64,000 nucleotides of DNA, taken from NCBI GenBank assembly GCA_002418775.1, contig DIEU01000049.1, positions 32,241 to 96,240 of the forward strand, written 5' to 3'. The position numbers and the translations under genes are program-made. Numbering within the stretch: the stretch's first letter is position 1; each line of letters starts with the position of its first letter. Under the pieces are notes generated by a model. It was not told where the DNA came from. It did no database searches and saw nothing but the letters and a program-made list of their open reading frames with translations. Below, piece by piece: positions 10,801 through 25,370 of the stretch. The DNA comes from Firmicutes bacterium UBA5766 (lineage in GTDB: Bacteria > Bacillota > Desulfotomaculia > Desulfotomaculales > Nap2-2B).

Positions 10801-10921
10801 CTATTTTTTCATCAAATTCTTCTGTCGCTTTACCGGCCTTGGCGATCGCGTTGGTGATTTTTTGGGCGTCAAATTTGACAATCCGGTTATCTCTTTTTCT
10901 TATTCTCTTAAACATCTGCAT
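7862..10921 (-). CDS. nrdD: anaerobic (class III) ribonucleoside-triphosphate reductase with N-terminal ATP-cone, interrupted by an in-frame intein
   Basis: ATP-cone 'IRKRDNRIVKFDAQKI'. C-terminal Zn/Cys site 'CPSHG...CPECG' and glycyl-radical motif 'SRVVGYLRP'. 1019 aa in total, 697 aa without the 322-aa insert. Confidence 0.95.
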   Translation of the reverse strand: MQMFKRIRKRDNRIVKFDAQKITNAIAKAGKATEEFDEKIARMITLKVLSLAEQLIPRKTPTVEEIQDIVEEVLLSSPYRKTAKAYIIYREQHARIRDIVGKSNVDLVDQYLQKLDWQVNENSNMAFSLQGLNNYISSEISQIYWLNKIYPAEIRDAHISGDFHIHDLNILSVYCVGWDLFDLLVEGFKGVPGKVESKPAKHFRSALGQIVNFFYTLQGEAAGAQAFSNLDTLLSPFIRYDGLSYTEVKQALQEFIFNINVPTRVGFQCLSEDTEILTPDGWAGYEDIKAGQLIKTFNIQTGSIEDQPVKNMFSKPYTGKMYNLKNRIQDQLISPGHRVVRRKFNTNEAFVLEEIEKVVTYKSPVIIPITGKNTNPDKDISDDEIRLLAWIIAEGSKESYTRHRHSHRITIYQSRTKSPQNYNEITGILDRMELTYSNRESVPALGTSSQMIRLNAESSQKLLDSLFKTRQTVKFIPDILKNMSRRQARLFLDTYLKADGHEGSKITTTNIEILNGLQQLTVDAGYGFTVGTRNPTIGKRTLYILRLIDHQDTYIQTIKKIDYSGVIWCPSTVNETVIARRNGKVFITGNTPFTNVTLDLTVPEYFLNQPVIIGGKMQNDTYKEFQKEMDMFNKAFLEVMLEGDARGRVFTFPIPTYNISKDFNWENSDLNILWEVTAKYGVPYFSNFINSDMNPEDARSMCCRLRIDNRSLEKKGGGLFGSNPLTGSIGVVTLNMPRLAYLSDDEHDFFVRLEPLMVMAKQALEIKRKVLERLTEGNLYPYARYYLRNIKEHLGSYWKNHFSTIGLLGMNEACINLLGKSIASPAGQKFSCLALDFMRSKLIEFQQETQNNYNLEATPAEGTSYRLARKDKDKFPQLMCANEDSFINGGEPFYTNSTQLPVNYTDDVFEALDLQDEIQSKYTGGTVLHIFAGERVEDPVVIKKLIRKICENYHIPYFTFTPVFSVCPSHGYLSGEQEKCPECGAQCEIYSRVVGYLRPLNQWNKGKQEEFALRKTFKV
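9152..10117 (-). mobile_element. intein with LAGLIDADG homing-endonuclease domain (aa 269-590 of NrdD)
   Basis: It starts 'CLSEDTEILT' (Cys1, codon 10117-10115) and has block B 'SPGH'. The dodecapeptide motifs are 'LLAWIIAEGS' and 'FLDTYLKADGH'. It ends 'VFITGN' (Asn codon 9154-9152), followed by Thr+1. The exteins join as 'RVGFQ|TPFTNVTLDL'. Confidence 0.85.
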
Positions 10922-10937
10922 CCGTCCTTTGTATTTG

Positions 10938-10984
10938 TCAAAACACAGGGGTCAAAACACAGGGGAAGAACCGTCCCCCTGTGT
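10938..10984 (-). promoter_or_regulatory. nrdD leader / intercistronic stem-loop with a tandem 14-nt repeat
   Basis: The minus-strand RNA reads ACACAGGGG-N10-CCCCUGUGU, followed by UUUGA and a second CCCCUGUGUUUUGA copy. The plus-strand tandem repeat 'tcaaaacacagggg' occurs twice, at 10938-10965. Confidence 0.4.
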
Positions 10985-11019
10985 CTACACGTTACTATTA
11001 TTTTAAAAACATAACTTCT

Positions 11020-11553
11020 TTAAAAGTTGATTTTTACCTCGTGCATGCCTTCTGCTAGATATTTTTTCGCCAGGTCAACATAGAGCTGTTTTCCCCATGT
11101 CCAGTGCTCAATATCCTTTTCCGCCAATTTCCGGGCTACCTTGGCTGGATTTCCGGCTACCACAACCTCGTCGGGGATTGCCTGCTCCATCTTGACTATC
11201 GCCCCCTCGGCAACGATAGTCCACCTGCCGATTTTAGACCTGATGCTTGTAATCGCGCCCATCCCAATTACGGCGTAGTCGTCCACCGACTGAGAATGGA
11301 TCACCGCGCCGTGGCCTAAAGTTACATGTTTACCGATCTTGCACGCCTGCTTCGGGGGAGCGTGGATAATTACTCCTTCCTCAACCGCCGTTCCAGAGCC
11401 TATTTCAATGCTTCCGTAATCTCCCCGGATAATTACCCCGTGGCCTATGTAGCAGTTATCCCCGATCTTCACATTGCCGATTACCAGGGCATGCTCGCTT
11501 ACATATGTATCCTTGCCTATTTCAGGCTGCCTGCCGTCAAAACTGTAGAACAT
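11020..11553 (-). CDS. gamma-class carbonic anhydrase-like / hexapeptide-repeat (LbH) protein
   Basis: 'FDGRQPEIGKDTYVSEHALVIGNVKIGDNCYIGHGVIIRGD' is typical of the YrdA/PaaY/CaiE family. I moved the start to ATG 11553, which follows 'AGGAGGGATTTG'. Confidence 0.85.
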   Translation of the reverse strand: MFYSFDGRQPEIGKDTYVSEHALVIGNVKIGDNCYIGHGVIIRGDYGSIEIGSGTAVEEGVIIHAPPKQACKIGKHVTLGHGAVIHSQSVDDYAVIGMGAITSIRSKIGRWTIVAEGAIVKMEQAIPDEVVVAGNPAKVARKLAEKDIEHWTWGKQLYVDLAKKYLAEGMHEVKINF

Positions 11554-11596
11554 CAAATCCCTCCTGATCAAGACTGTACCCAAACCATCCTTTTAA

Positions 11597-11625
11597 ACAA
11601 TAAAACAGGTTCTTTTTTATGTCAA
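11597..11625 (-). promoter_or_regulatory. candidate sigma-A promoter for the LbH gene
   Basis: On the minus strand: TTGACA (11625-11620), a 17-nt spacer, then TATTGT (11602-11597). Confidence 0.45.
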
Positions 11626-11896
11626 CAGGCAGTTGGGGACACAAGGGGACGTTTTTGTTGTGTCATTCATTCTCTCGGGGTAAGATGAACTGGGCAAGCG
11701 GGGACGGTTATTGTGTATTTAATCAATTTGAATTTCTGTGGTTGCTGTAGCACATCTGAATGTTACTTCTACCTGCACAGCCAACTATAAATATAATCAG
11801 GCTGGCGAATAACTTTTAAAGTATAAGTGTTTAATAGGGGGATATATAAGATTAAATAGCCAGAATTCTCTACGCAACGACAATACTTGTCAATAT

Positions 11897-11934
11897 TCGA
11901 TAAAGGAAAATGTGGCGTTTTATCGAATAAGAAC
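11897..11934 (+). promoter_or_regulatory. sigma-H-like promoter motif (TTCGATAAAGGAAAAT-N12-CGAATAAGAA) embedded in an 11-bp perfect inverted repeat
   Basis: AGGAAAA ... GAATAA fits the Bacillus sigma-H consensus RNAGGAWWW-N11-12-RNNGAATWW. The arms 'tattcgataaa' (11894-11904) and 'tttatcgaata' (11919-11929) are exact reverse complements. A twin motif sits at 31882-31919. Confidence 0.3.
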
Positions 11935-12024
11935 AAACAGCAGCGCTGGAACTCATAATTTGTTTATTTCGCCAGGTCGCATATTCCTGGCAAATAACGA
12001 TAGTTTTATTCTGTAGAAAGGACA

Positions 12025-12402
12025 GTGAAAGTGTTTTTGGATTTACCGGATAACAAGAAAAGAGAATCCACAAGAACAGCGGAAATTACTCTTAGATTAT
12101 CTGAATTCGAGTTTCCGCCCATGCAGGATGTGTTGCTAATCGGCAGGAAGGCTCCTATAGGGCCGGAGAGCGCCAGGAAAATGGCCGATGTATTATCACC
12201 TGACCAATATGAAATAATTTCTCTTGAACATCATTTTTTTGAAGCTGCCATAGTAAGGAAATCACTATTAACAATAATTCCCCAGGAAAAACTTCTGATG
12301 GTTGTTCTGGAGGAATGCGAAAAAATATCCCCTGAAAGCTTAGTATTGAAAATACATGTCAGTGTGGTTGTAAATGTAAAAAGAGTGGTGGAACTAGATT
12401 GA
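12025..12402 (+). CDS. hypothetical protein (125 aa), translationally coupled to the CBS-GGDEF gene
   Basis: GTG start. The stop overlaps the next start (TTGA, 12399-12402). I recognise no family motif. Confidence 0.4.
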   Translation: MKVFLDLPDNKKRESTRTAEITLRLSEFEFPPMQDVLLIGRKAPIGPESARKMADVLSPDQYEIISLEHHFFEAAIVRKSLLTIIPQEKLLMVVLEECEKISPESLVLKIHVSVVVNVKRVVELD

Positions 12403-13271
12403 ACAACATCAGTGAAATTATGGAGGATAGCCCTGTAACGATATCTCCTTATGTCAGCGTAAAATCGGCCAGCGAGGTTATGGAAAAGCACAGGTTCGGC
12501 GGATTACCTGTAATCAATGACGGTTTGATAGTCGGTATTTTGACCTCAAGGGACGTGAGAAGAAGCCATCCCAACAGGCTTGTTGCTGATGCAATGACAA
12601 AAAATGTTCTGACCATGCCACCGGAAACTTCGCTCTGGGAAGCCAGGGAATTTATCGAAAACAATTGTATTGAACATCTCATGGTAGCAAACGAATCAAA
12701 GCTTTTAGGCATAATAACAAAATCATTGCTTAATCTGGAATTTGGGAAACAAGTCGATACACTGACGGGGCTGTACCGTTCAGATTATTTGTACTACATG
12801 GCAGTTAAGCTGCTGCAAATAGGAACTGAAATAGCAGTTTTATTTATTGACCTGGATGATTTTGGGGCAATTGATAAAGAAATGGGTCATGTTACCGGGG
12901 ATGTAATCCTAAGACAGGTGGCGGAAGCATTTAAAAAAGTTGTCGATGACAGAAAAGATTATTTGTGCCGCTATGCAGGTGACGAGTTTGCTGTTGTAAC
13001 CTCACGTTGCTTGAAAGATGCACGAAAACTTGGAGTTATGCTGTTAGATTCGTTAGCCAAACAACAATGGCCGAACGGGATAAATCTAAATGCCTCAATA
13101 GGAATAGCAGGCGGGAGGAGAGGCCATCAGCGCCCAGCTAATGAACGGAATGCTGTGAGTAAGCTGATTAACCTGGCAAGCCTGGGTTCGGCTATGGCTA
13201 AGACAAATAACACAAGAATTTTTTTTGTAGGACAGATAGAAGTAGTAGAAGATGTGGGCTTAAGGAAGTAA
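12399..13271 (+). CDS. CBS-pair / GGDEF-domain protein (diguanylate cyclase-like, with variant AGDEF motif)
   Basis: Two CBS motifs ('GGLPVINDGLIVGILTSRDV', 'HLMVANESKLLGIITKSLL'). The GGDEF domain begins 'DTLTGLYRSDY' and its active-site region reads 'CRYAGDEFAVV'. Confidence 0.85.
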   Translation: MNNISEIMEDSPVTISPYVSVKSASEVMEKHRFGGLPVINDGLIVGILTSRDVRRSHPNRLVADAMTKNVLTMPPETSLWEAREFIENNCIEHLMVANESKLLGIITKSLLNLEFGKQVDTLTGLYRSDYLYYMAVKLLQIGTEIAVLFIDLDDFGAIDKEMGHVTGDVILRQVAEAFKKVVDDRKDYLCRYAGDEFAVVTSRCLKDARKLGVMLLDSLAKQQWPNGINLNASIGIAGGRRGHQRPANERNAVSKLINLASLGSAMAKTNNTRIFFVGQIEVVEDVGLRK

Positions 13272-13328
13272 GGGGACGAAAGCGTAGGGACATTCCTTTT
13301 GCTTTGTTATTTGGGCATTAAATTGAAA

Positions 13329-14027
13329 TTATTTTTTACCCGCCAATAAAATCCCGGCCAGAGCAAAGTCCAGCGGTGTGTCGATATCCACTGAACGTTC
13401 TCTGGGCATGATGCAGGCGTATGTCTGAGGACCGTAAAAAGAGTCGTTTTCAAGAAAGTAGTTCCATTGGATGAGATAGATAGCGCCGTTTAACTGGTAA
13501 AACACAGGAAGCTGCTGGCGGGATTGGTTGGCCTCGGGACGGATGAAATGTTCCAGGCAGTGGTCATCCGGGAGGGTGTTGACCAACCAGGGGTGATGGG
13601 GAGTCTCGCAGACGGAGACTACCGCTTTTGCCTGGCGTTCAATCATTAGCTTGCAGGAATTAACGATATCTTCAGGAGATCGAAGAGGGCTGGTTGGCTG
13701 AAGAATAGCCACCCAGTCAAATTTTTCACCCTGGTTTTCGCACCAGATCATTGCGTGCAACAGTACGTCGCTGCTTTTGGCGCTGTCTGTGGCCAGTTCG
13801 GCAGGTCTCAAAAAAGGCGCCACCGCCCCCGCTGAAAGAGAAACTGCCGCTATATCTTCGCCGTCGGTCGAAACTAGCAGTAAATCAAAAACGCCGCTGG
13901 CCAGAGCTGCTTCAATTGTATGGACGATCAGCGGTTTTCCGGCCAGGGGCTTGATGTTTTTTCCGGGGATCCCTTTTGATCCCGCGCGGGCGGGGATAAT
14001 TCCAAGGATCTTTTTGTTCTGATACAT
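13329..14027 (-). CDS. CMP-nonulosonic acid synthetase (acylneuraminate cytidylyltransferase family; NeuA/LegF-like)
   Basis: 'ILGIIPARAGSKGIPGKNIKPLAGKPLI' is the signature N-terminus. I moved the start to ATG 14027 (MYQNKK), because the longer ORF would overlap the upstream gene. Confidence 0.85.
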   Translation of the reverse strand: MYQNKKILGIIPARAGSKGIPGKNIKPLAGKPLIVHTIEAALASGVFDLLLVSTDGEDIAAVSLSAGAVAPFLRPAELATDSAKSSDVLLHAMIWCENQGEKFDWVAILQPTSPLRSPEDIVNSCKLMIERQAKAVVSVCETPHHPWLVNTLPDDHCLEHFIRPEANQSRQQLPVFYQLNGAIYLIQWNYFLENDSFYGPQTYACIMPRERSVDIDTPLDFALAGILLAGKK

Positions 14028-14034
14028 ATCTTGT

Positions 14035-15126
14035 TTACCCCGTAAGTTCAAAAGCCCGCAGAGTCTGGCGGTATTCTTCCCACTGTCCGATGTCGAACCA
14101 TTCACCGTGGTGGGGGAAAACTCCAACTTTCAGTCCCTTTTCCTTGGCCAAGTCAATCAAATCGGGCATCTGCAGCACTTTTCCTTTTGGAACGAGGCCC
14201 AGGACCTCCGGTTCCAGGACATAAACACCGCTGTTGACCAGGAAGTGGAAGTTCGGTTTCTCATTAATATTTTGAAGGCTGTCGTTGTCCACCTTTAAGA
14301 CGCCGTAAGGTATGGTGAATTTTCGCAATGCTCCGAGGATAGTCAGCGCATTTCCGTGCTCCCGGTGATATCTCAAGAGTTCGCCGTAATCTGTTTCTAC
14401 AATGATATCGCAGTTGGAGACAATAAAAGTCTCTTTAAAATCCCCGTTTAACAGCCCCAGGGCGCCTGCCGTACCCAGAGGCTCTTTTTCCTGGACAAAG
14501 CCTATCTTATATTTACGGCCGTTGTTTTCAGTGAAATAAAGCCGCACTATTTCCGCTTTATAGCCCAGGCTGATTGTGAAATCAGAGAAGCCCTGGCCGT
14601 GGAATTTTTCCATGATTACTTCAACGATAGGCTTATCACCGAGAGGGATCATCGGTTTGGGCAGTATTTTTGTAAACGGATCCAGCCTGGCGCCCATCCC
14701 GCCGGCCATGATGATTACCTTTTCTGTCCTTTTTTCCTTGCGGTTTCCAAAGACGTCCCTGCAGAGAAGAAGGTCGACTACCCGCTGCTGGTTGTCAAGA
14801 AGCGGAATATGCCGGATGTCATGATCGAGCATAAGTTTGCGGACAACGCCCAGGTCGGTCCCGGTTTTTACGGTTTTAGGATTTTTGCCCATGATTTCGC
14901 TCAGGCTGGCATCCATGTTGACTCCCCGTAAAAGCGCCCTGCGGATATCCCCGTCGGTAATTATTCCTACCAGGCGCTGTTCACGGTCGGTAACCAGGAG
15001 CACCTGCATACCTGCCTTATCCATACGCGGCAGGGCTTCAGAAAGTTTTTCCTCCGGCAGGGCGGTAATCTTTTTTAAATCCTTTTTATGCCAGGCCACA
15101 TTTTCATCCTCCCTCGAAATCTTCAA
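14035..15126 (-). CDS. CBS-pair + sugar-phosphate nucleotidyltransferase (PtmE-like)
   Basis: N-terminal CBS pair ('LLVTDREQRLVGIITDGDIRR'), then a nucleotidyltransferase fold 'VIIMAGGMGARLDPFTKILPKPMIPLG'. This architecture matches the Campylobacter legionaminic-acid enzyme PtmE, from memory. Confidence 0.7.
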   Translation of the reverse strand: MKISREDENVAWHKKDLKKITALPEEKLSEALPRMDKAGMQVLLVTDREQRLVGIITDGDIRRALLRGVNMDASLSEIMGKNPKTVKTGTDLGVVRKLMLDHDIRHIPLLDNQQRVVDLLLCRDVFGNRKEKRTEKVIIMAGGMGARLDPFTKILPKPMIPLGDKPIVEVIMEKFHGQGFSDFTISLGYKAEIVRLYFTENNGRKYKIGFVQEKEPLGTAGALGLLNGDFKETFIVSNCDIIVETDYGELLRYHREHGNALTILGALRKFTIPYGVLKVDNDSLQNINEKPNFHFLVNSGVYVLEPEVLGLVPKGKVLQMPDLIDLAKEKGLKVGVFPHHGEWFDIGQWEEYRQTLRAFELTG

Positions 15127-16141
15127 GCATTTCCCGGGTCAGCGCTGTTTCCGCCGGTATATCGACAACCGCTTTGCATCCGATTATAGAATCCCAGAGC
15201 ATTGGCGATATTCCTGTTCCCGGCCTCTTTACAGTCAGACAGTCTTCAGTAATTCTTGCGCCTGCCGGAATATTTCTGCTGGAAACGATACTGCGTCTGG
15301 CTGCTGCAGCGATTTTTATTTCATCGGGTACCGGGGCTTTGAAACCGTCTCCGAGGCTTTTTTCCGCCAGGCGGATAAATCCCACCATACTATTTAATTC
15401 GTCCGGTTCTAGGGAACATTTATGGTCAGGACCCTCCATTTTACGGTTTAATGTAAAATGTTTTTCAATTACTTCGGCTCCCATAGCCACCGCAGCGATG
15501 GGGACGGCGTATCCAATGGTGTGATCCGAATAACCTACGGGCGGGCCGAATGCTTGTTTGAGAGTGAGCATTGCTTTTAAATTTACTTCTTCGGGAGGCG
15601 TTGGGTAATTCGACGTGCAGTGAAGCAAAGTAATTTCCCCGGCGCCCGAACTTTCAAGTATTTGGATAGCTTTTTTAACTTCCTCCAAAGTTGACATTCC
15701 CGTAGACATGATTACTTTCTTTCTTTTTTCGCCTATCCGCCTCAGCAGGGGCAGATTGGTTATTTCTCCGGAGGGAATTTTGAAGCAGTCCAGGTTTAAC
15801 TCGTCCAGAAAATCAACGCTTTCCAGGTCAAAAGGGGAGGAAAGAAAAGTAATTCGGCGCCGGTCGCTGTACTCTTTCAGCTTTCTGAAATCATCAAAGC
15901 CGAGTTCGAGCTTTTTAAGCATTTCCAACTGGCTTTCAACTCTATGCGGCATGTTCTTTTGCTGGTATTGAGCCCTTTCGGCGAAAGAGGTGACTAATTT
16001 TTCTGCTTTAAAGGTTTGAAATTTAACCGCATCCGCTCCGCTTTTGCAGGCAAAATCAACCATCCGCATGGCCAGGTCCAGACTCCCGTTATGATTTACG
16101 CCTGCTTCGGCGATAATAAAAACACTGCTTCTTCCTGTCAT
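15104..16141 (-). CDS. nonulosonic acid synthase (NeuB/LegI family)
   Basis: 'VFIIAEAGVNHNGSLDLA...ADAVKFQTF' is the NeuB signature, with a C-terminal SAF-like tail. The start overlaps the upstream stop by 1 nt (TAATG). Confidence 0.9.
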   Translation of the reverse strand: MTGRSSVFIIAEAGVNHNGSLDLAMRMVDFACKSGADAVKFQTFKAEKLVTSFAERAQYQQKNMPHRVESQLEMLKKLELGFDDFRKLKEYSDRRRITFLSSPFDLESVDFLDELNLDCFKIPSGEITNLPLLRRIGEKRKKVIMSTGMSTLEEVKKAIQILESSGAGEITLLHCTSNYPTPPEEVNLKAMLTLKQAFGPPVGYSDHTIGYAVPIAAVAMGAEVIEKHFTLNRKMEGPDHKCSLEPDELNSMVGFIRLAEKSLGDGFKAPVPDEIKIAAAARRSIVSSRNIPAGARITEDCLTVKRPGTGISPMLWDSIIGCKAVVDIPAETALTREMLEDFEGG

Positions 16142-17322
16142 TATTGAATAATCACCTCACCGGGGCCCGGAAAATCAAGCCGCTTTTCTAAAATGGTTTT
16201 CCCAAGCGGAGTTTGTTCAAGTAGCCTGACAATTCTTTCACTCGCCTTTCCGTCCCGGAAGGGATCGTAAGGGTTGACTGTTTTGGGCAGACCGGCGCGA
16301 AATACCGGATCGGTCAAAGCTTTTTGCAGGCCTTGAACAATGTCTTCCCTGCGGCAGTTTACATCCAATACGCTTTCCGCCCTGATTCTGCCCTTTTGGC
16401 GGTTGCCTATGTTGACGGTTGGAATGTGGAAGCTGGGCGCTTCGATAATGCCGCTCGAGGAATTACCCACCACCGCTGAAGCAATCCGCATCAATCCGAG
16501 GTAACCCCGGGAACCCAGGCTTGGTTTAAGCAGCACATTGTTTTTATTCAAAGCATAATCCTGCCAGATTTGAATCACCGCCTGATAGCCTGTTTCCATG
16601 CCGGGATAGGTAATCACCTGCTGGTATTCCTGAAATTGCTCCAGGGCCAGCGCAACTTCTTTTGCCTGAGCTTCCGTATCATTTTCGCCGGTAATTGTTT
16701 CCGGGTGAAAAGTAATCAGCAGGGTGGGTGTTTCGGGATCTATGCCGAAGTTGTTTTTGATTTCTGATGGTGAAAGATAATCACAGGAGTAAATATTTTC
16801 GATTCCGGTTGAGCCGACAACGTGAATCCGCCATGCCTCTTCACCCATCCGCCTGATCCGGCGCCCATATTCCCAGGTTGAAACAAAATGAAGATGGGCC
16901 ATCTTTGTCAGCGCATGGCGCACCTGTTCGTCAAGCGCGCCCTCGGTTGATTCACCGCCGGCAATGTGGGCGATCGGCGCCCTATAGATTAAAGCGCAGG
17001 CAGCGGGGGCAAGGAGTTCGTATCGATCCCCCAAAAGAAGCAAAAAATCGGGCCTGTATTTCCCGATTATTGAAGCCATTTTAACGGTTGCCTCGCCGAG
17101 AGATCCGGCGATGGATTCATGATTATCGGAAGCGGGCGTGAAGGGGACTGTTTCGGCAACGGCAAATCCGTCCTTTTTAATGTCCGAAATTGTACCGCCC
17201 TTGTATGAGGCCAGATGATCGCCGGATGCGACCAGGATAAGCTCGAGGTCCGGGCTGTCCGAAATATTCTTCAGGACCGGTTTTAACAGGCCGTAATCAG
17301 CCCTTGTTGAAGAAAAGGCCAT
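16141..17322 (-). CDS. UDP/GDP-N-acetylglucosamine 2-epimerase (hydrolysing), NeuC/LegG family
   Basis: 'STRADYGLLKPVL...HIAGGE.TEGA.DE..RHA.TK..H.HF' is typical of NeuC. I set the start at ATG 17322 (MAFSSTRADYG), overlapping the upstream stop in TAATG. The Arg-rich 83-aa N-terminal extension in the ORF track is out-of-frame overlap with the acetyltransferase gene. Confidence 0.9.
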   Translation of the reverse strand: MAFSSTRADYGLLKPVLKNISDSPDLELILVASGDHLASYKGGTISDIKKDGFAVAETVPFTPASDNHESIAGSLGEATVKMASIIGKYRPDFLLLLGDRYELLAPAACALIYRAPIAHIAGGESTEGALDEQVRHALTKMAHLHFVSTWEYGRRIRRMGEEAWRIHVVGSTGIENIYSCDYLSPSEIKNNFGIDPETPTLLITFHPETITGENDTEAQAKEVALALEQFQEYQQVITYPGMETGYQAVIQIWQDYALNKNNVLLKPSLGSRGYLGLMRIASAVVGNSSSGIIEAPSFHIPTVNIGNRQKGRIRAESVLDVNCRREDIVQGLQKALTDPVFRAGLPKTVNPYDPFRDGKASERIVRLLEQTPLGKTILEKRLDFPGPGEVIIQ

Positions 17323-18047
17323 TATCCTGCGCAAGCTGCCATAACACCTCTGGAAGGATTCTTGACAATTACCGCCGGGTTTCCAAAGGCGGTCACACCT
17401 GCGGGTATGTCCCTTGTAACAACTGCCCCGGCGCCAATCAAGGCGCTTTCCCCGATAGTGATTCCCTGGATTATCCGTGCGCCTGCGCCGATAAACGCTT
17501 TTTCTTTTACCGCTACTTCTCCGCAAAGAACGGCGCCCGGACCGATCTGGGCCGAATGACCGATCAAACAATCATGTTCGACTATAGCTCCGGAATTGAT
17601 GATTACATTTTCTTCTATCACAGCGCGGGTGTTAATAATTGATCCGGCCATTACCACGGTAGCCGGGCCGAGCCGTGCAGTCCGTGAGACTATTGAACCC
17701 GGGTGCTTGAAAACGGGAAATTCAAAACCATTATATAGACAGTATTCGTAAAGGGTTTTTCTTTTCAGGTTGTTAAAACCCGCCATACCCATGGCGGCAT
17801 ATTTGAGCAGTTTATCAGGAAGGTTGGCAATAATACTGTCATTGCCGAGGTAGGGTAGCTCATCTCTTGTCAGAATGTTTTCTGGTTGAGGATCAACACA
17901 GCCGACCGGCTTGAACTTTTTTGTCATGAGGATTATTTCAACGACAACCCTTGCGTGGCAACCAGCCCCGATAATCACAATCGGTTTTTTATTCATAGGC
18001 ATATTCTGATACATCGTTTGCTTTCGATACAAGGGCAATTGAATCAC
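17322..18047 (-). CDS. sugar N-/O-acetyltransferase, NeuD/PglD/LegH family (LbH)
   Basis: N-terminal Rossmann-like 'PIVIIGAGCHARVVVEII' followed by hexapeptide repeats. GTG start preceded by GAGGAAAG. Confidence 0.8.
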   Translation of the reverse strand: MIQLPLYRKQTMYQNMPMNKKPIVIIGAGCHARVVVEIILMTKKFKPVGCVDPQPENILTRDELPYLGNDSIIANLPDKLLKYAAMGMAGFNNLKRKTLYEYCLYNGFEFPVFKHPGSIVSRTARLGPATVVMAGSIINTRAVIEENVIINSGAIVEHDCLIGHSAQIGPGAVLCGEVAVKEKAFIGAGARIIQGITIGESALIGAGAVVTRDIPAGVTAFGNPAVIVKNPSRGVMAACAG

Positions 18048-18200
18048 ATACTTTCCTCACAGATTCGTCAGTTACAAAGTAGCGCTGGAAATTTATACCC
18101 CTGTATTATAATTCGTCGGCAATACTGTTTTTCTGTAGGTCTACTATGAAAATTTACTATCCCCAGGGAGGGCAACTGCCTACGTGCTCATGTTCGTCTC

Positions 18201-19172
18201 TTACATTATATAAAGTCCTGATTTGTATATCGGGGTGTTCTGCGCAAACCATTCGATTGTTTCCCTAAGCCCTTCCTCCAGAGTGAACTGCGGTTGCCAG
18301 CCTGTCAGGGTAACCGCCTTTTTATTGTCGCAAAGCAGCCTTTCCACCTCGCTGGCTTCCGGTCTTATCCTCGGGGGGTCAATTTCAATTTCTGCTTTTA
18401 TACCTGAGATATTTTCTATCATCTTAACAAGGTCCCGGATTGAGATCTCACTGCCGCTGCCTAGATTGACTATTTCTCCCGTACATTTTTCCGAAAACCC
18501 CACACAGATCATTCCTTTTACCGTGTCCCGGACAAAGTTTAAATCTCTGGTTGGTATAAGGCTTCCCAGGCGGACTGTTTTATTTTCGCCAAGGATCTGG
18601 GTAATGATTGTCGGAACAACCGCCCGGGTAGACTGGCGCGGCCCGTAGGTATTGAAAGGCCTTGCCACAGCAACGGGAAGGCCGAATGAGCGGTAATAGC
18701 TTAAAGCCAGCTGGTCGGCGGCAATCTTTGTGGCGGCGTAGGGGGATTGGGCCTGCAGCGGGTGCGCTTCATCTATGGGTACATATCTGGCTGTTCCATA
18801 AACCTCGGAAGTTGAGGTGACAACTACTTTTTTTGTGCCCAGTTCCGCAGCAGCCTGACATATGTTGTATGTGCCTTCAAGGTTGGTTTTGATATATGCA
18901 AGCGGCGATATATAGGAGTAGGGGATACCTATTAAAGCAGCAAGGTGGAAAACAAGATCAACGTCTTGTAAACAACTTTTTACACTGTCATAATCCCTGA
19001 CATTGCCGGTGACAATCTCCATACCGCCAATTAAGGGGCTGTTTTCCAGCCATCCCCAGTTATTGCGGGAGTTGTAAAGAATTAAGGCTCTTACATTGTG
19101 CCCCCGCTTAACCAGTTCTTCGCACAAGTGAGAGCCTATAAAACCGCCTGCTCCTGTCACCAAGATTTTCAA
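18201..19172 (-). CDS. NAD-dependent nucleotide-sugar 4,6-dehydratase (LegB-like SDR)
   Basis: 'KILVTGAGGFIGSHL' is the NAD-binding motif and 'SPYAATK' gives the catalytic YxxxK. 'LYNSRNNWGWL' resembles the LegB-type subfamily as I remember it. TTG start. Confidence 0.75.
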   Translation of the reverse strand: MKILVTGAGGFIGSHLCEELVKRGHNVRALILYNSRNNWGWLENSPLIGGMEIVTGNVRDYDSVKSCLQDVDLVFHLAALIGIPYSYISPLAYIKTNLEGTYNICQAAAELGTKKVVVTSTSEVYGTARYVPIDEAHPLQAQSPYAATKIAADQLALSYYRSFGLPVAVARPFNTYGPRQSTRAVVPTIITQILGENKTVRLGSLIPTRDLNFVRDTVKGMICVGFSEKCTGEIVNLGSGSEISIRDLVKMIENISGIKAEIEIDPPRIRPEASEVERLLCDNKKAVTLTGWQPQFTLEEGLRETIEWFAQNTPIYKSGLYIM

Positions 19173-19200
19173 AGAAAAATGCCCCTTTCGACTTTCTTGC

Positions 19201-21030
19201 TTATTTTAAGGAATTTAAAGACGTACATATCCATTCTTCAATTTTTTCCGCCGCCTTGTTAAGATCTGTATAAAAAACGCAGGACTGTTCGATTATATTT
19301 CTTGACTTTTCAATTTGCTCAACAGTCTCCTGCTCTTCAACACGGGCAAATTTCTGGTAAGCAGGTGAAAAAATCGAATCAAGCCAGGGAAAAGCTTTTT
19401 GCTGTTCAAATATTTTTTGGTCCAAATGCTTTAGTTTTTCTTTGAACAGGTCTATCTTTTTAAGGGACGGCATTTCACCAGAGCTGTATAGCTGGTCCAA
19501 TTTCTGTGATATCTGCAGTCCTAAACGGGCATACTTTTTTACCCTTCTTAAGCATTGTTTTGTTTCTTTTAAATCAAAACATATTTTTTCGATCACATCA
19601 AGAGGAATATCTTTTTGTACAGCCAGTTTCTTTAATGTTTCGTCAATAGGATATTCTTTTGTCAGGTACCTGTCTATAGTTTCCCTGAAAGTCATTTCTT
19701 CAGTACCGGGAATTCTGGCTCCGCCTTCGGTAGCGTTGATTATTTTTACATGATCTTTGACCAGGGGGATCTCTTCTTCGTACCAGTGTAAAAAACAAGC
19801 CAGGGGAAGACTTGTTTCAACTTTTTTATTCCCTCCGTATCCCTCTACTTCAACCAGTTGTTCGCTGCCTGCGGTCCGCCCCTTGTAGATTGTCTTTTGT
19901 GAGTGTGTTTTGCGGCCGGTGTAGGCAAGGTCCTGACCGATAAAGATAATTGGATCAAGGCCTGCTTTTACGGCCAGGTCAAAGGAAACATTAGCCACAG
20001 AAGGGCCGCCCTTTAAAATGGTTCTTTTCTCATCAATGAAATTCTCCAGCCAGGACATAAAGTAAGGATCATATGCCCCTACAATTTTTGGCCCTTTAAA
20101 ATTGGCGGGGATGCTTTTATAGGTAACTGGAGAAAAGATCAATACAGAATCTTTAACTTCTGCATTTTCGAAATTTGCCGCGTTGGCTTCCGCTCCGTCA
20201 ACAGTGACGACCAGGTCCGGTTCCATTCCGATGCTTAATATTGCTTTAAAAGCGGTTCCGGCTGCAATAATAACCGCCTTGTTTTTAATTTCTTTGAGAA
20301 GGTGTATATTCTTATCCAGGGATGGACCCGCAGCAACAATTACCCCGGGTACGCCCTTAAATGGTCCGCAAAGAACGTCTACATCCGGGGCTTGAATTGT
20401 TGCCGGAAGATTATATAAAAAGTTTTCTGTCCAGTCGAACGAAAAATGCATCAAGGTATTCGAGCATAAGATATGATCAGCTACAACAGCGTTTACAGAA
20501 TCCTCGAGTTCCTTAAAACTATCACCCGCATTGCGCAGTACGGGCAAATACGCCAGGAGCTTAAGTTTTTCAGGCTGGTAGATGTTCAGTTGTCTTTCAA
20601 TCAGTTTGAGAATTTCTTTTTTTTCGGCGCCAAAGTATAAAGTAACGTTTTCCCTGTTAATCAGGGAAGTGAGGTCAACAGCATTTAAGGCGGTTTTAAA
20701 TGTTGACAGGTCAGGTTCCATGGCCACGATTTTTGCTTTTGGGTATAATAGACTCAATCTGTTAAGGTGGTAACCAAAGCCAATTCCACAGACAAGCAGC
20801 GTATCATCTTCCGCCGCGTAGATATTTTGAGCCCACCTGGCGGCCTCTCTCATCGGGTCGTAGGAGCTGTGCAAGTGGCAGACCTTTTTATTACGAGACA
20901 CTTTCAATGTGGGCAGTCCAGTCTTTGCCGGGACGACCTCGCCCAGAGGTGTCGTCTGTGGTAATCTGTCTGCCAGATCAGGATATCTGTTTTTTAGTGC
21001 GGAAAGATTTTTACTGGATAAGTTGCACAT
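19201..21030 (-). CDS. maf: motility accessory factor (Maf, DUF115/MptE-like) putative flagellin nonulosonic-acid glycosyltransferase
   Basis: 609 aa. The central segment 'VIVAAGPSLDKNIHLL...AVIIAAGTAFKAILSIGMEPDLVVTVDG' is typical of the Maf/DUF115 core. It sits between flagellar genes and the sugar genes. Confidence 0.8.
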   Translation of the reverse strand: MCNLSSKNLSALKNRYPDLADRLPQTTPLGEVVPAKTGLPTLKVSRNKKVCHLHSSYDPMREAARWAQNIYAAEDDTLLVCGIGFGYHLNRLSLLYPKAKIVAMEPDLSTFKTALNAVDLTSLINRENVTLYFGAEKKEILKLIERQLNIYQPEKLKLLAYLPVLRNAGDSFKELEDSVNAVVADHILCSNTLMHFSFDWTENFLYNLPATIQAPDVDVLCGPFKGVPGVIVAAGPSLDKNIHLLKEIKNKAVIIAAGTAFKAILSIGMEPDLVVTVDGAEANAANFENAEVKDSVLIFSPVTYKSIPANFKGPKIVGAYDPYFMSWLENFIDEKRTILKGGPSVANVSFDLAVKAGLDPIIFIGQDLAYTGRKTHSQKTIYKGRTAGSEQLVEVEGYGGNKKVETSLPLACFLHWYEEEIPLVKDHVKIINATEGGARIPGTEEMTFRETIDRYLTKEYPIDETLKKLAVQKDIPLDVIEKICFDLKETKQCLRRVKKYARLGLQISQKLDQLYSSGEMPSLKKIDLFKEKLKHLDQKIFEQQKAFPWLDSIFSPAYQKFARVEEQETVEQIEKSRNIIEQSCVFYTDLNKAAEKIEEWICTSLNSLK

Positions 21031-21060
21031 GGCGCTTCTCCTAAAGACCTGATTTTCAAG

Positions 21061-21414
21061 CTAAGCTAAAATGCATGTATTTACCTGTTCCACAAAAGGC
21101 ACAAGTTCGTATTCCAGCAAATCGCCAATCAAAACGTAATCGTCATTTTCCAATGCGTCAAGTAAACAGGTCAGATAATTGCCAAGTTCTTTTATCTCTT
21201 GACAGTCAAATGATTTTATGTTTCTTAAGAATCCCGCCAGCCAGCGCAACCCATCCGCGGCCTTGGTAAAAAAGAATGCCCCGTCTGCTTCATTGCCATT
21301 ACGCATCAATTCTGCGATAGCCATAAGACCCCCGGCTAACTTGGGCAAATAGTCTTCAGCGGTCTGATAGAGCTCATTGTCAGATAAATTGTTGTTTGTT
21401 TCTTCTGCAGCCAT
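21061..21414 (-). CDS. hypothetical protein (117 aa)
   Basis: Good SD for the downstream maf gene and tight operon spacing. I recognise no family motif. Confidence 0.45.
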   Translation of the reverse strand: MAAEETNNNLSDNELYQTAEDYLPKLAGGLMAIAELMRNGNEADGAFFFTKAADGLRWLAGFLRNIKSFDCQEIKELGNYLTCLLDALENDDYVLIGDLLEYELVPFVEQVNTCILA

Positions 21415-21426
21415 TTCTCCTGCCTC

Positions 21427-21840
21427 CTAAAAATCTTTTTGAATAAACCTTGGTGAAGGTACGATATTTCTCTTGTAGGCTTGAAAAGTATCCCTTGTTT
21501 TATTCAAGATCTTGTTTTCTTGCCTTTTTATTGAAATGCACTCGGTCATTAAATCCAGAAGTAAATCCATATTTATTTTGACTTCTTTTGTTTCGTGAAG
21601 AAGTTCTGAAAAAGCGCCTTTGACCATAGGAGATGTAAAGGGGGCAGAATGATTATTATACCTGCTTAAGTCTGTAATCCTTTCTCTTATTTCCGCTTCC
21701 GTCTTCCACAGCTGTGTTGCTTTTTCCAGGTTGCCCAGTTTTATTTCGTTCTCTGTTAATAGAATTAATTCCTTGAGGCTGGAATAGGCGTTTTTCTGTT
21801 TTTGTATAGCGGTCATTAATTCATCTGCCGTAAAGGTCAT
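21427..21840 (-). CDS. hypothetical helical protein in the position of FliT (137 aa)
   Basis: It lies immediately downstream of fliS (2-nt gap), as fliT does in Bacillus, and has helical, coiled-coil-like composition. The assignment is positional only. Confidence 0.45.
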   Translation of the reverse strand: MTFTADELMTAIQKQKNAYSSLKELILLTENEIKLGNLEKATQLWKTEAEIRERITDLSRYNNHSAPFTSPMVKGAFSELLHETKEVKINMDLLLDLMTECISIKRQENKILNKTRDTFQAYKRNIVPSPRFIQKDF

Positions 21841-21842
21841 CT

Positions 21843-22217
21843 TTACATCCCTATTTTACAGGCGCCCTTGGACCATGAGTCTTTTATTTCGGTAAGAAGT
21901 TCGGTTATCTCATCAAGGATTGTGACATCTCTCTTGATGTTTGCCTGGATAAGCCGAAAATGCATGTACTCATATAATCTTTCGAGATTAATGGCAAAAT
22001 CTCCGGCCTCAAAGTTCAAGCTTGCCCGCAGTTCATTGATTATCTTCTGGCTTCGGCTTAAAAGGTAATTTGTTTTGGCTATTTCACCCTGTTGGATCGT
22101 TTCCTTCGCCTGTTCAATGAAACTCAACGCTCCCTCATAGAGTATAAGGACGAGCTTTTCCGGCGGGGCTGTAATAACGTTATTCTGAGCGTATGCGGCT
22201 ACCTTTTCATCGATCAT
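21843..22217 (-). CDS. fliS: flagellar export chaperone FliS
   Basis: 'LILYEGALSFIEQAK...RSQKIINELRASLN...LERLYEYMHFRLIQANIKRD' matches the FliS family pattern. Confidence 0.9.
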   Translation of the reverse strand: MIDEKVAAYAQNNVITAPPEKLVLILYEGALSFIEQAKETIQQGEIAKTNYLLSRSQKIINELRASLNFEAGDFAINLERLYEYMHFRLIQANIKRDVTILDEITELLTEIKDSWSKGACKIGM

Positions 22218-22253
22218 TTGGTCGTCCCCCTTTGTCTGTTTCTTTAGTTTTTG

Positions 22254-23951
22254 TTAAGAACTGCTGTTCATCGCTGAAATTTGGTTTGTCAGCCATGTGC
22301 TGGTTGAATTGAACTGACTAATAAGTTCTTCCATCTGCGCGAACTGTCTCTCCAGTTGCTGCTGTCTGATTTCCAGCCGGTCGTTCATATCCTCAATTGA
22401 AGCGTTTAAAAACTTTATCTCTTTTTCGTAAGCTTTTTGGTGTGCAGATATAAGACCATTTCCATCATTAATCTGGCGGTCAATTTCTTCTATTAGGCGG
22501 ACTGAAATTCCATTTTCACTTTCTCCAAAAAGATTGGCCAGGGCTGTTGATTGGTCTTGGGCTGCTGAAGTTAATTTGCTCTCGTCTATAACTAATTTGC
22601 CGTCACGATCAATAGTAATTCCTGCCTGCGATAACCTGCTCAGGCTTGTTATTGTTCCTTCAACAGGAGCGATAGTCTTTCTCCAGATGGACTGAACCAG
22701 GGACTGCAAAGATATGTCTCCGTTTAATGTGCCTTCTTTATCCAGATCATCGTTGATTAAACTGACCACTTCATTGTACTGGTTGACGAAGTCACTGATC
22801 TTGCTTACAGTCGATTCATAATCAGGCTTAACTTCTATGCTTGCTTCTCCTGAAGTCAGCAGGGTAACGTTCAACCCGGGGATAATATCTGAAACTTCAT
22901 TCGAATCGCTGTAAAAAGTTGCCCCTCCGTTAATTTCCGATATTGAGAAAGCTGCGTTGGCCCCCAGATCCTGTTGAGCGTTTAATATGTCCAGGGTAGC
23001 CAGGAGATTCCCGCTTGTTTCTGATAAAGACATACCAATGCTGCCAGTTTTGCTTGATTTAAGAGCAATTTTGTCTGATACGGGATCATAGCTGGCATAA
23101 ACTTGAGCGTCAGAACTATTTATCCGGCTGATTATGTCGTTTAATGAATCAGCCGTAGTGTCGTAATCTATTGAAACACCATTGATTGTAAAACTGCCGC
23201 TGGTTGTGGAAAGAAGTCCGTTTTTCAAACGCGAATCATCCAAAATTGCATCTGTTTTGGTCATTCCCAGGTTCGCCTGGCTGGTTTTCGTATAAGGTCC
23301 GCTTCCCTGTGCAGGAGCGGCCAAAAGGCGTGTGGCGGTAAGAAAATTGCTTGTATCAGCGCCCTGGCCAAGGTTAAGGTTGTCAGGATTGTCGCTTGTT
23401 AAAACCAGGCGGTCGTTTAAGTAACTTGCTGTAACTCCGGTTGTTGACGACTGCGCATTGATCCGGTCGATTACATTTACCAGGCTGTCACTGGCTGCGT
23501 CCAGGGTAAAAGTATAATTGTTGATTGTAAATGTTCCGCTGGTGGGGGTAATGGCAAAACCGGCTTCGCTGCTGTTTAAAACGGCGCCGGTGTTAACCGG
23601 CTGGCCGATTGTCCCGGCGCTTTGCGTTTTGGTTCCGGTGGCTGTGCTGGTTATGTTAAAATGATATGTTTCCGGCAGGGCGCCGCTCTGTGCTGAAGCT
23701 TTAAGCACTGACTCATTGCTGACCGTGGTGGTTTTACCCGAAAAGGAAGTGGACAGGTTCAAATCTGACAGTGCGTTTTTCAGGGAAAGGAGTTTGGTGT
23801 TAATTGTGCCCCAGGCATTTTTTTTGGCGGTTAAATTTGTAACCTTTGTTTTCATATTGGTCACAGGTTGTTTTTCAAGCTGCATTAATGCCTCAATTAT
23901 GCTGTCTGTGTCAATGCCGGAGCTAATTCCCGTAAATTGAATGGTTGACAT
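22254..23951 (-). CDS. fliD: flagellar filament capping protein FliD
   Basis: N-terminus 'FTGISSGIDTDSIIEALMQLEKQP' and a C-terminal coiled coil '...LERQFAQMEELISQFNSTSTWL'. Confidence 0.9.
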   Translation of the reverse strand: MSTIQFTGISSGIDTDSIIEALMQLEKQPVTNMKTKVTNLTAKKNAWGTINTKLLSLKNALSDLNLSTSFSGKTTTVSNESVLKASAQSGALPETYHFNITSTATGTKTQSAGTIGQPVNTGAVLNSSEAGFAITPTSGTFTINNYTFTLDAASDSLVNVIDRINAQSSTTGVTASYLNDRLVLTSDNPDNLNLGQGADTSNFLTATRLLAAPAQGSGPYTKTSQANLGMTKTDAILDDSRLKNGLLSTTSGSFTINGVSIDYDTTADSLNDIISRINSSDAQVYASYDPVSDKIALKSSKTGSIGMSLSETSGNLLATLDILNAQQDLGANAAFSISEINGGATFYSDSNEVSDIIPGLNVTLLTSGEASIEVKPDYESTVSKISDFVNQYNEVVSLINDDLDKEGTLNGDISLQSLVQSIWRKTIAPVEGTITSLSRLSQAGITIDRDGKLVIDESKLTSAAQDQSTALANLFGESENGISVRLIEEIDRQINDGNGLISAHQKAYEKEIKFLNASIEDMNDRLEIRQQQLERQFAQMEELISQFNSTSTWLTNQISAMNSSS

Positions 23952-23968
23952 GGTTCCAACTCCCTTTT

Positions 23969-24337
23969 TTACACATAATCATCCATGAATGTCCCTACAG
24001 CATTTTTTATTTGGGCCAGTATATCCAGAAATTTTTCCTCAGGAATTTCTTTAATTACTTCTTCCGGATACCGGGTTGAATCAACGACTTGTACTATAAG
24101 CCGCTTCGTAGCTTTGTGGACCTTAAACCGCAGATCATAACCCACAAAAATTGCCAGCCTGTTTAAAGTCTCGGTGTCGGCTTTTAATACTTTGATATTT
24201 TCTTCCGCTGCCCCGGTTTTTCCCGCATTTGAATCGTCTTCATTTTGGGCCTGCTGTCTTTTTTGAACCGGTTTAAAGTCCTGCTGCAGGGTAGACTCTA
24301 TTATCGCCTGGATTGCGCTTTTTTCTTCGATTTTCAT
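23969..24337 (-). CDS. flaG: flagellar protein FlaG
   Basis: 'LRFKVHKATKRLIVQVVDSTRYPEEVIKEIPEEKFLDI' is the FlaG family core. The gene lies between the flagellin and fliD. Confidence 0.8.
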   Translation of the reverse strand: MKIEEKSAIQAIIESTLQQDFKPVQKRQQAQNEDDSNAGKTGAAEENIKVLKADTETLNRLAIFVGYDLRFKVHKATKRLIVQVVDSTRYPEEVIKEIPEEKFLDILAQIKNAVGTFMDDYV

Positions 24338-24397
24338 AGATCATCATCCTCTTCAAATTCCAAAGGGCCTTCTTAACAGGCATTTTGTTTCCCCTAA

Positions 24398-24439
24398 CAG
24401 GAGGGACGGCCGGATGCTGTAATACCCCGGCCGGTCCTG
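24398..24439 (-). terminator. GC-rich stem-loop after flagellin copy 1 (no clear U-tract; leaky terminator or RNA stabiliser)
   Basis: Plus-strand arms 'caggagggacggccgg' (24398-24413) and 'ccggccggtcctg' (24427-24439) pair with one bulge. Confidence 0.4.
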
Positions 24440-24456
24440 ATAAAGGGTTCCAAAAA

Positions 24457-25284
24457 TTATCTCATTAAAGAGAGTATCTGCGAGGGTATTTGGTTCGCCT
24501 GAGCTAACATAGCCATGCCGGTTTGCTGCAGGATCTGGTTTCTTGAGTACTCGGTCATTTCTTTGGCCATATCCAGATCGCGGATTCTCGACTCGGCTAC
24601 GGTGAGGTTTTGATTCATATTTCCCAGGTTGGTAATCGTATGCTCAAGGCGGTTTTGATAAGCGCCGAGCTGTGCCCTGCGGGTGGCAAGTTTCTCAATG
24701 GCATTCTGCACTTTCGTGATCGCGGCGTTTGCCCCGGTCACAGTAGTCAGTGACAGTGTTCCTCCTGTTACTATAGCTGAAAAAGCTGCTCTGTTAATGG
24801 CGATGGTCATCTTTTCGGCTGCCAGGGCGCCGACCTGGAAGACCTTGGTGTTGGCGGCGCCTGAGAAGCCGCCGCTTAACAGTTTGATGCTGTTAAAGTT
24901 GACATTGTCCGCCATCTGGTTGATCTGTGCTTTTAAAGCGCTGTATTCAGCATTAATCTTTGCCCGGTCGGTATTGTTCAGACTGTTGGTTGCAGCTTCG
25001 GTGGACAGGTCTTCCAGGCGGACGAGGATACCGTTTATGGTATCCAGCGCACCTTCAGCGGTCTGGATCAGCGAGATTGCGTCCTGGGCGTTCAATTCGG
25101 CTCTTTCCATCCCCTTGAGCTGAGCCCTCATTTTTTCCGAGATGGCCAGTCCGGCGGCATCATCGGCTGCACGGTTGATCCGCAATCCGGAAGACAGCTT
25201 TTCAAGGTTCTTGGTAATGCCAGCCTGGGTAATGCTAAGGTTTTTATTGGCATCCAGCGCCATGGTATTATTGTAAATGTACAC
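24457..25284 (-). CDS. fliC: flagellin (275 aa, short D0/D1-only type), copy 1
   Basis: N-terminus 'LSSGLRINRAADDAAGLAISEKMRAQ' and C-terminus 'QILQQTGMAMLAQANQIPSQILSLMR'. GTG start after AGGAGG. Confidence 0.95.
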   Translation of the reverse strand: MYIYNNTMALDANKNLSITQAGITKNLEKLSSGLRINRAADDAAGLAISEKMRAQLKGMERAELNAQDAISLIQTAEGALDTINGILVRLEDLSTEAATNSLNNTDRAKINAEYSALKAQINQMADNVNFNSIKLLSGGFSGAANTKVFQVGALAAEKMTIAINRAAFSAIVTGGTLSLTTVTGANAAITKVQNAIEKLATRRAQLGAYQNRLEHTITNLGNMNQNLTVAESRIRDLDMAKEMTEYSRNQILQQTGMAMLAQANQIPSQILSLMR

Positions 25285-25319
25285 TTCTTTTTTCCCTCCT
25301 TTTCTGAGTTTTGCGTTTC

Positions 25320-25349
25320 GTGCCTTTTTACGGCCGCTCAGAAAGGCAC
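25320..25349 (-). promoter_or_regulatory. conserved 5'-UTR hairpin of flagellin copy 1
   Basis: 8-bp stem GUGCCUUU / AAAGGCAC. The same stem occurs at 26581-26610. Confidence 0.4.
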
Positions 25350-25370
25350 AAAAACTTTTATTTGTGTATA

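Follow-up and report, generated by a model that had tools for sequence, protein, structure and literature searches.

A Flagellin Glycosylation Operon With One Gene Missing

We analyzed a 64,000-nt stretch of the genome of Firmicutes bacterium UBA5766 (contig DIEU01000049.1, positions 32,241 to 96,240; hereafter the window), which comes from a hydrocarbon-associated metagenome. Its central feature is a minus-strand run of seven genes at 13329–21030 that encodes a Maf-type flagellin glycosyltransferase and enzymes of legionaminic acid (Leg) synthesis. In the direction of transcription the run reads maf, legB, legH, legG, legI, ptmE and legF, and its genes overlap or are separated by spacers of at most 30 nt, with the single exception of a 153-nt gap between legB and legH (18048–18200). 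At this position sister species carry legC, the gene for the pyridoxal phosphate (PLP)-dependent DegT-type aminotransferase of the pathway. As read from alignments of the gap, the decisive fact, which the initial annotation of the window overlooked, is that legC was once present here and was then deleted. Upstream of maf in the same run lie two flagellin genes, flaG, fliD, fliS, and two small open reading frames (ORFs). The window reaches 13 kb and 43 kb past the two ends of the operon, and the same gene arrangement is found in other independently assembled contigs.

The first gene, maf (19201–21030), encodes a 609-residue Maf-type flagellin nonulosonate glycosyltransferase that carries the domains of a Maf system, PF01973 MptE-like (E value 2e-47, elsewhere 1e-47) and PF20157 Maf_flag10_N. 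It lies between fliS and legB, downstream of the two flagellin genes. Its match to the NCBIfam PseD domain model (2e-43, 148.9 bits) is far under the cutoff of 670, and its nearest solved structure is 5mu5, which we take to be the Magnetospirillum Maf. The legB gene (18201–19172) encodes a 323-residue NAD-dependent sugar-nucleotide 4,6-dehydratase that scores 475.6 bits against TIGR04180 (cutoff 475). The next gene, legH (17322–18047), starts at GTG 18047 or at ATG 17996; its product belongs to the NeuD/PglD family (NeuD/PglB type; TIGR03570, 207.8 bits against 160.8; PglD_N and Hexapep domains) and is a predicted acetyltransferase that, from its sequence, may carry out N- or O-acetylation.

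The downstream genes complete the set. A hydrolyzing nucleotide-sugar 2-epimerase is encoded by legG/neuC (TIGR03568, 408.9 bits; PF02350), the real extent of which is 16141–17322 (393 residues, as in the gene call of contig L001), a 476-residue ORF at this place being an over-extension. The nonulosonate synthase gene legI/neuB (15104–16141, 345 residues; TIGR03569, 473.6 bits; NeuB and SAF domains) follows, and the synthase is 64% identical to that of LegC-containing Moorella-group clusters. Although both proteins score above the cutoffs of these models, TIGR03568 and TIGR03569 do not separate Leg from neuraminic acid (Neu) enzymes; LegG and LegI are labeled as Leg-type because they are orthologous (86–91% identity) to proteins of complete Leg clusters in sister species. 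The ptmE/legX-like gene (14035–15099, 354 residues) encodes two tandem CBS domains joined to an NTP_transferase domain and is 62–64% identical to its Moorella-group orthologs. The last gene, legF/neuA (13329–14051, 240 residues), encodes a cytidine monophosphate (CMP)-nonulosonate synthetase (PF02348 CTP_transf_3, 1.6e-21, 77.6 bits against 22.6); it scores 168.7 bits against PseF, its nearest equivalog model, under the cutoff of 205.7. These Pfam and NCBIfam assignments bear out the gene list of the initial annotation (Maf, LegB, NeuD/LegH type, NeuC/LegG, NeuB/LegI, PtmE-like, and NeuA/LegF), which was also right to place the cluster with the Campylobacter/Moorella-type legionaminic acid set plus Maf.

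The Gap Between legB and legH Contains a Remnant of legC

For comparison, we fetched 80 loci with the closest relatives of LegB, one genome per species (labeled L001 and so on). Searching the gap with the LegC protein of one of them, L005 (Desulfotomaculum sp. UBA7919), by tblastn reveals the last ~51 codons of a LegC-family aminotransferase at 17995–18144 on the minus strand. The match covers residues 330–380 of the 381-residue protein at 59% identity (E 1e-12) and is interrupted by one in-frame stop codon and a frame-breaking gap. In the DNA alignment the window retains the last ~154 nt of legC, which are 84–90% identical to the intact legC 3′ ends of L005, L084, and L087 and contain a 2-nt and a 1-nt deletion. 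The initial annotation had considered the gap too small for an aminotransferase; it is indeed too small for the gene, but it is not empty, as it holds this 51-codon stump.

The remainder of the gap is a 61-nt filler (18140–18200, minus strand), which sits at the deletion junction and immediately follows the legB stop codon. It has no significant match to legC, to the legB–legC spacer of L005 or L084, or to the corresponding junction in L004, a second genome lacking legC (shuffle test; blastn-short), nor to any sequence in the window or the fetched loci (blastn-short). Filler and junction are identical in four independently assembled contigs, the window and L001, L002, and L003, the latter three coming from different runs and assemblers (ENA ERZ922797, Logan SRR5325344, and Logan SRR636569), and the gap is therefore not an assembly artefact. 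A regulatory RNA, a terminator, or a new promoter in the gap was considered and rejected: the window has no Rfam match, the RNA fold of the gap is no better than that of shuffled sequence (z = 0.68), and a pattern scan detected no terminator-like site along the gene run and no strong promoter-like site in the gap.

The part of legC that survives overlaps the start of legH. Where legC is intact, its stop codon overlaps with the start of legH (ATGGATAA), and the tail of legC thus carries the translation signals of legH. The three legC-containing genomes keep an intact Shine–Dalgarno AGGAG motif six nt ahead of the legH ATG, and an upstream GTG with an GAGGAAAG-type Shine–Dalgarno sequence is kept in all five genomes.

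legC Was Lost Twice in Closely Related Lineages

L004, L005, and L084 are each ~87% identical to the window at the DNA level and syntenic with it from flgK to legF, and L087 is about as similar in its DNA; their proteins are close as well, with Maf 87–90% identical to its L004 and L005 orthologs. In L005 a 381-residue ORF lies between legB and legH and scores 429 bits against the LegC model TIGR04181 (cutoff 420). Used as a query, this LegC finds two further close homologs (87% and 90% identity) that likewise sit in a legB–legC–legH arrangement, in L084–L086 and in L087, further lineages of the same genus-level group. In L004, as in the window, there is no legC ORF. Three lineages (L005, L084–L086, and L087) thus keep legC and two, those of the window and L004, are without it. 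The scar in the window, together with an intact legC at exactly that spot in sister genomes, indicates a canonical Leg cluster minus one gene rather than a pathway designed without amination.

The two legC-less genomes carry different scars. L004 retains 250 nt of the legC 3′ end, with short A-rich microhomology at its junction, compared with the 154 nt and 61-nt unrelated filler of the window. The window relic is 90% identical to L084 and 83% identical to L004, so the two relics do not pair as nearest relatives. At informative sites in the 3′ half of legB, the relic, and legH, 35 support the grouping of the window with L084 and of L004 with L005, 9 the grouping of the window with L004, and 15 that of the window with L005 (chi-square test, p 8e-5). 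The four long loci are a recombination mosaic, but the signal is clear immediately around the deletion. Because the end points differ, the filler cannot be aligned, and the informative sites favor window plus L084 and L004 plus L005, we conclude from these comparisons that legC was lost twice, independently. A single ancestral deletion shared by the window and L004 was rejected on the same grounds (different 3′ end points, 61 nt that align with neither L004 nor legC, and sites split 35 vs. 9); the only character in its favor is one common G-to-A change in AGGAG. In both cases the stretch of legC that overlaps the legH start was left in place.

Recombination may also have acted further upstream. 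The fliC-to-maf block of L084 (2873–9005, corresponding to 19201–26548 of the window) differs from the other three genomes by a synonymous divergence (dS) of ~0.7–1.7, compared with 0.3–0.5 for flgK, flgL, and the leg genes, and the block of flagellin, cap, and Maf genes seems to have been exchanged between species as a cassette.

No Linked Aminotransferase Replaces LegC

The absence of a PLP-dependent aminotransferase, pointed out in the initial annotation, is real. Family scans found no DegT-type protein among window ORFs of at least 150 residues, and tblastn with two LegC proteins across the 64-kb window (E ≤ 10) gave the relic (18144–17995) as the sole significant match, so a hidden aminotransferase within the window was rejected. 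A legC gene just left of the window was rejected as well, as overlapping contigs contain no DegT gene in the 10 kb beyond the left edge; these 10 kb encode glycosyltransferases, two AsnB-like amidotransferases, a C5-epimerase, and a transglutaminase-like protein. Within the 64-kb window plus 10 kb to its left, there is thus no protein matching the LegC model TIGR04181 or PF01041 in cis. The initial annotation had allowed for a legC gene of the same operon just outside the window, which cannot hold because the last gene of the operon stops at 13329, facing a CBS-GGDEF gene on the other strand. A legC that had moved elsewhere within the same lineage was rejected too: the nearest LegC sequences in a large protein database (100%, 90%, and 87% identity) all lie in canonical legB–legC–legH clusters of other lineages.

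Separation of the aminotransferase gene from legB is not confined to this group. Among the 80 LegB loci, a DegT gene lies directly downstream of legB in 47 and elsewhere within 10 kb in 9, and 24 have no DegT gene in the flanks covered (up to 10 kb on each side, several contigs ending early). For the 49 loci with a NeuB homolog nearby, the corresponding counts are 32, 6, and 11. One Bacillota metagenome-assembled genome (MAG) in the set, L009, has a flagellar island (8039–20527) with maf, a LegB homolog (62% identity), NeuC, NeuB, NeuD, PtmE, NeuA, and flagellin, along with an ATP-grasp protein, a HAD hydrolase, a pyruvyl-transferase-like protein, and a PIG-L deacetylase, and with no DegT aminotransferase within 10 kb. 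L009 probably makes an acyl-remodeled Leg-type sugar; it represents a second instance, unrelated to this one, in which a linked aminotransferase is missing.

The Remaining Genes Are Under Purifying Selection

All seven window genes are full length, and neither legC-less genome shows a frameshift or stop codon in the remaining six biosynthetic genes or in maf. Between the window and L004, the ratio of nonsynonymous to synonymous substitution rates (dN/dS, Nei–Gojobori method; dS 0.24–0.55 for the leg genes and maf) is 0.11 for legB, 0.13 for legH, 0.18 for legG, 0.14 for legI, 0.055 for ptmE, 0.13 for legF, and 0.14 for maf. These values are indistinguishable from those obtained in comparisons with legC-containing genomes and from those of flagellar genes. 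At columns conserved at ≥95% across up to 82 homologs, the window and L004 keep the consensus except at two LegB positions, and inactivating substitutions at conserved columns were thus rejected. In LegB, 100 of the 102 broadly conserved columns match the consensus; of the two deviations, D57N is common to the legC-containing L005 and L084 and I186V to L005 only.

The relics themselves carry information on timing. In L004 the upstream 104 nt of the relic have dropped to 68% identity and acquired several indels, compared with 84–92% for functional copies over the same stretch. This decay indicates that the L004 deletion is old, while legB and legH stayed intact. The 154 nt surviving in the window show 10 private changes, no more than expected of a functional gene, and look constrained. 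Collectively, the genes that remain suggest that the pathway is probably still in use in the legC-less genomes.

A Putative Unlinked Aminotransferase and the Alternatives

We favor, with moderate confidence, the reading that the locus is a Maf plus Leg-type flagellin operon of the guanosine diphosphate (GDP)-N-acetylglucosamine route that lost legC by a deletion of about 1 kb, with amination now provided by an unlinked aminotransferase. The deletion begins right after the legB stop codon and spares the last ~154 nt of legC together with the legH translation-start region. In the proposed route, PtmE/LegX would supply the GDP-sugar, and LegB would convert it to the 4-keto-6-deoxy intermediate; C4 amination would be carried out by an aminotransferase encoded elsewhere in the genome, LegH would acetylate the resulting amine, LegG, LegI, and LegF would produce the CMP-activated Leg-type sugar (predicted to be a 5,7-diamino-3,5,7,9-tetradeoxy-nonulosonate), and Maf would transfer it onto the two short flagellins. 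Supply of C4 amination from elsewhere is the simplest reading because LegB, which acts before the missing step, and LegH, which acts after it, are both maintained. Moreover, the deletion scar and the intact gene in sister genomes mean that new chemistry need not be invoked. Unlinked genes of this pathway are documented: in Brevundimonas subvibrioides, LegC (Bresu_0765) is encoded apart from legB/legX/legG/legF (Bresu_3264–3267) and from legH/legI (Bresu_0506–0507) (bioRxiv 10.1101/2022.03.25.485807), and in the Campylobacter jejuni reference protein list legH is remote from legB and legC. An aminotransferase encoded elsewhere was among the explanations offered in the initial annotation; the purifying selection on legB and legH and the published unlinked LegC now make it the most likely candidate among them. 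A different nonulosonate, also offered, is possible but less likely, and nothing specific speaks for a dehydratase that serves another branch.

Several observations weigh against an unlinked aminotransferase in these genomes. No candidate was found in the 64-kb window plus 10 kb to its left. Where legC is present it evolves under normal purifying selection (dN/dS 0.12–0.14) and is therefore not obviously redundant there, so the legC-less lineages would need a substitute that lineages keeping legC may not have. Neither legC-less genome retains the AGGAG motif ahead of the legH ATG, the sequence there being AGAAT in the window (~18000–18010) and AGAAG in L004 (~11210–11220); with legC gone, legH may now start elsewhere or be expressed less. 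The dN/dS values are simple Nei–Gojobori estimates on a recombining, mosaic set of genomes. For the window lineage the main weakness is that nothing but the 154 nt that look constrained is left of legC, so that its deletion cannot be dated; a signal of purifying selection taken over the entire branch is thus no proof that the genes here kept working once legC had gone.

One set of alternatives holds that the product changed. After the loss of legC the operon might make a different nonulosonate that needs no C4 amination and is transferred by a donor-promiscuous Maf, either a 9-deoxy, 7-hydroxy or 7-keto sugar derived from the LegB product, with the NeuD-family enzyme serving as an O-acetyltransferase, or a Neu5Ac (N-acetylneuraminic acid)-like sugar made by the remaining neuD/C/B/A-type set. 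Indeed, the four genes of this set, downstream of the gap, formally correspond to neuD–neuC–neuB–neuA, and the NCBIfam models do not split Neu from Leg. The loss occurred twice, legC shows no relaxed selection where it persists, and clusters with LegB and NeuB and no DegT in the flanks covered recur in other phyla, for example L009, where the cluster lies beside maf and flagellin. Moreover, the Maf of Clostridium botulinum reportedly takes Neu5Ac and Kdo (3-deoxy-D-manno-oct-2-ulosonic acid) when its native Leg derivative is missing (PMC11339370). The enzymes of the window, however, are 86–95% identical to those of sister species with complete Leg clusters and show no accelerated protein evolution, so nothing points to altered substrate specificity of LegG, LegI, and LegF. 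A Neu5Ac-like bypass would also leave legB and ptmE useless, yet their dN/dS values are 0.11 and 0.055, and a nonaminated 4-keto route would need a reductase, of which the island has none, and would leave the N-acetyltransferase, whose gene legH is conserved, without an amine. We know of no natural nonaminated 9-deoxy nonulosonate. On balance we regard a changed sugar as unlikely. Slightly less likely still is a LegC-independent route in a wider sense, suggested by the loss of legC at least twice in one genus while the other genes stayed under purifying selection, whether by non-DegT amination or through an undescribed nonaminated 9-deoxy flagellin nonulosonate, in which loss of legC would switch the surface sugar between sister species. 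If such a switch did occur, it would change an antigen or a phage receptor between them.

A further alternative is that the pathway is simply broken, by a deletion so recent that the other genes have not yet decayed, and that the flagellin is unglycosylated or carries whatever CMP-sugar is available. The age of the window deletion is unmeasurable, the AGGAG before the legH ATG is mutated, and legC is under selection where present, all of which suit this scenario. Glycosylation is lost in the legB, legH, and legX mutants of B. subvibrioides, and a Leg pathway thus fails on removal of one step (bioRxiv 10.1101/2022.03.25.485807). Against it stand the age of the L004 deletion, as judged from relic decay, and the undisrupted state of legB, legH, legG, legI, ptmE, legF, and maf at dN/dS 0.05–0.18: at the indel density of the L004 relic (several in 104 nt), neutrally evolving legB and legH (~1.6 kb together) would be full of frameshifts. 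The seven window genes are likewise full length with every conserved residue kept, and the region where legH starts escaped both of the independent deletions. Bacteria with known Maf systems usually can no longer assemble filaments or move when glycosylation is lost, and such a defect would be strongly counterselected in a genome that, by the gene content of the window, keeps a complete flagellar regulon. A recently broken pathway is therefore possible for the window lineage and contradicted by L004, and overall we find it improbable. As the sequence comes from metagenome assemblies, faulty assembly or binning (for example, a collapsed or chimeric contig) has to be considered as the reason why legC is missing, but this is scarcely credible given the identity of the junction and the 61-nt filler in the window and three contigs from different runs and assemblers, a relic with its own substitutions, indels, and stop codon, and an independent MAG, L004 (JBAZGB01), with a similar but distinct deletion.

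Acceptor Genes and Genomic Neighborhood

The presumed acceptors of the sugar are two tandem flagellins of 275 and 272 residues (ORF translations), encoded within 24457–26548 on the minus strand (24457–25284 and 25730–26548); the corresponding genes in L001 carry Flagellin_N and Flagellin_C domains. L004, L005, and L084 each have one flagellin gene at that position, and the tandem pair of the window looks like a lineage-specific duplication. Between fliS and maf (21061–21840) lie two small conserved minus-strand ORFs, missing from the gene list of the initial annotation, of 117 residues (21061–21414; annotated in L001 as DUF8042) and 137 residues (21427–21840; no family). Both occupy the same place in L001, L004, L005, and L084, with dN/dS of ~0.2, and they may encode Maf accessory or chaperone-like factors. 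Their place beside maf recalls GlfM, a small four-helix Maf specificity factor (bioRxiv 10.1101/2023.12.03.569772), the likeness being one of position alone.

The gene that faces the operon end at 13329 encodes a CBS-GGDEF diguanylate cyclase (12399–13271, plus strand) and is convergent to the operon. It is also found in L005, but L084 has none in the interval from legF to the hexapeptide-repeat gene. The rest of the 64-kb window contains flagellar genes, an envelope-glycan cluster, nrdD/nrdG, a transporter, and an acetyl-CoA synthetase. The cell-envelope glycan cluster (341–6228 in the window and L088:1–10000) encodes two adjacent AsnB-like glutamine amidotransferases, several GT4 glycosyltransferases, a C5-epimerase-like protein, a transglutaminase-core protein, and a wall protein with three fn3 domains and copper-amine-oxidase N-terminal repeats.

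Comparison With Known Leg Pathways

By gene content and orthology, the locus is an ordinary Leg-type flagellin glycosylation operon of a Desulfotomaculum-like bacterium, orthologous to Moorella-type islands, and its twist is the recurrent loss of one gene. With one natural loss in each of two lineages and the rest of the pathway under selection, the genus provides natural legC-plus/legC-minus pairs, which could be used to probe the dependence of the Leg pathway on its dedicated aminotransferase and shifts of the flagellar glycan between sister species. The finding also calls for caution in cluster-based pathway prediction, as about one-fifth of loci with LegB and NeuB have no aminotransferase gene in the flanks covered (≤10 kb per side).

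The closest counterparts are the flagellar-locus Leg clusters of Moorella/Neomoorella and those of the Desulfotomaculum-like sister MAGs L005 and L084–L087, which have orthologous genes in the same order. The Moorella-group proteins are 55–67% identical to those of the window. The Moorella-type and sister clusters have an intact LegC between legB and legH (TIGR04181, 429–447 bits), whereas the window and L004 are without it. The CBS-nucleotidyltransferase LegX/PtmE is a marker of Leg as opposed to pseudaminic acid (Pse) pathways, and its Moorella humiferrea ortholog is experimentally functional (bioRxiv 10.1101/2022.03.25.485807). The Leg pathway of C. jejuni NCTC 11168 (PtmE, LegB, LegC, LegH, LegG, LegI, and LegF, plus Maf) comprises the same families and follows the same GDP-sugar logic, and in both organisms maf adjoins the flagellin genes. 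In contrast, legC in the window is only a 51-codon relic, ptmA, ptmF, ptmG, and ptmH are absent, and the genes form one compact operon, whereas legH lies apart in C. jejuni.

The C. botulinum flagellin glycosylation island is likewise a Gram-positive Maf system, with a legionaminic acid derivative reported as its native donor (PMC11339370). The donor promiscuity reported is that of the C. botulinum Maf; the window resembles this island in its type of system. B. subvibrioides, finally, has a working Leg pathway with an unlinked aminotransferase and is a direct precedent for amination supplied from elsewhere. It differs in being an alphaproteobacterium that uses an FlmG transferase and has its genes in three places, whereas the window has a Maf and a single operon that bears a deletion scar where legC stood.

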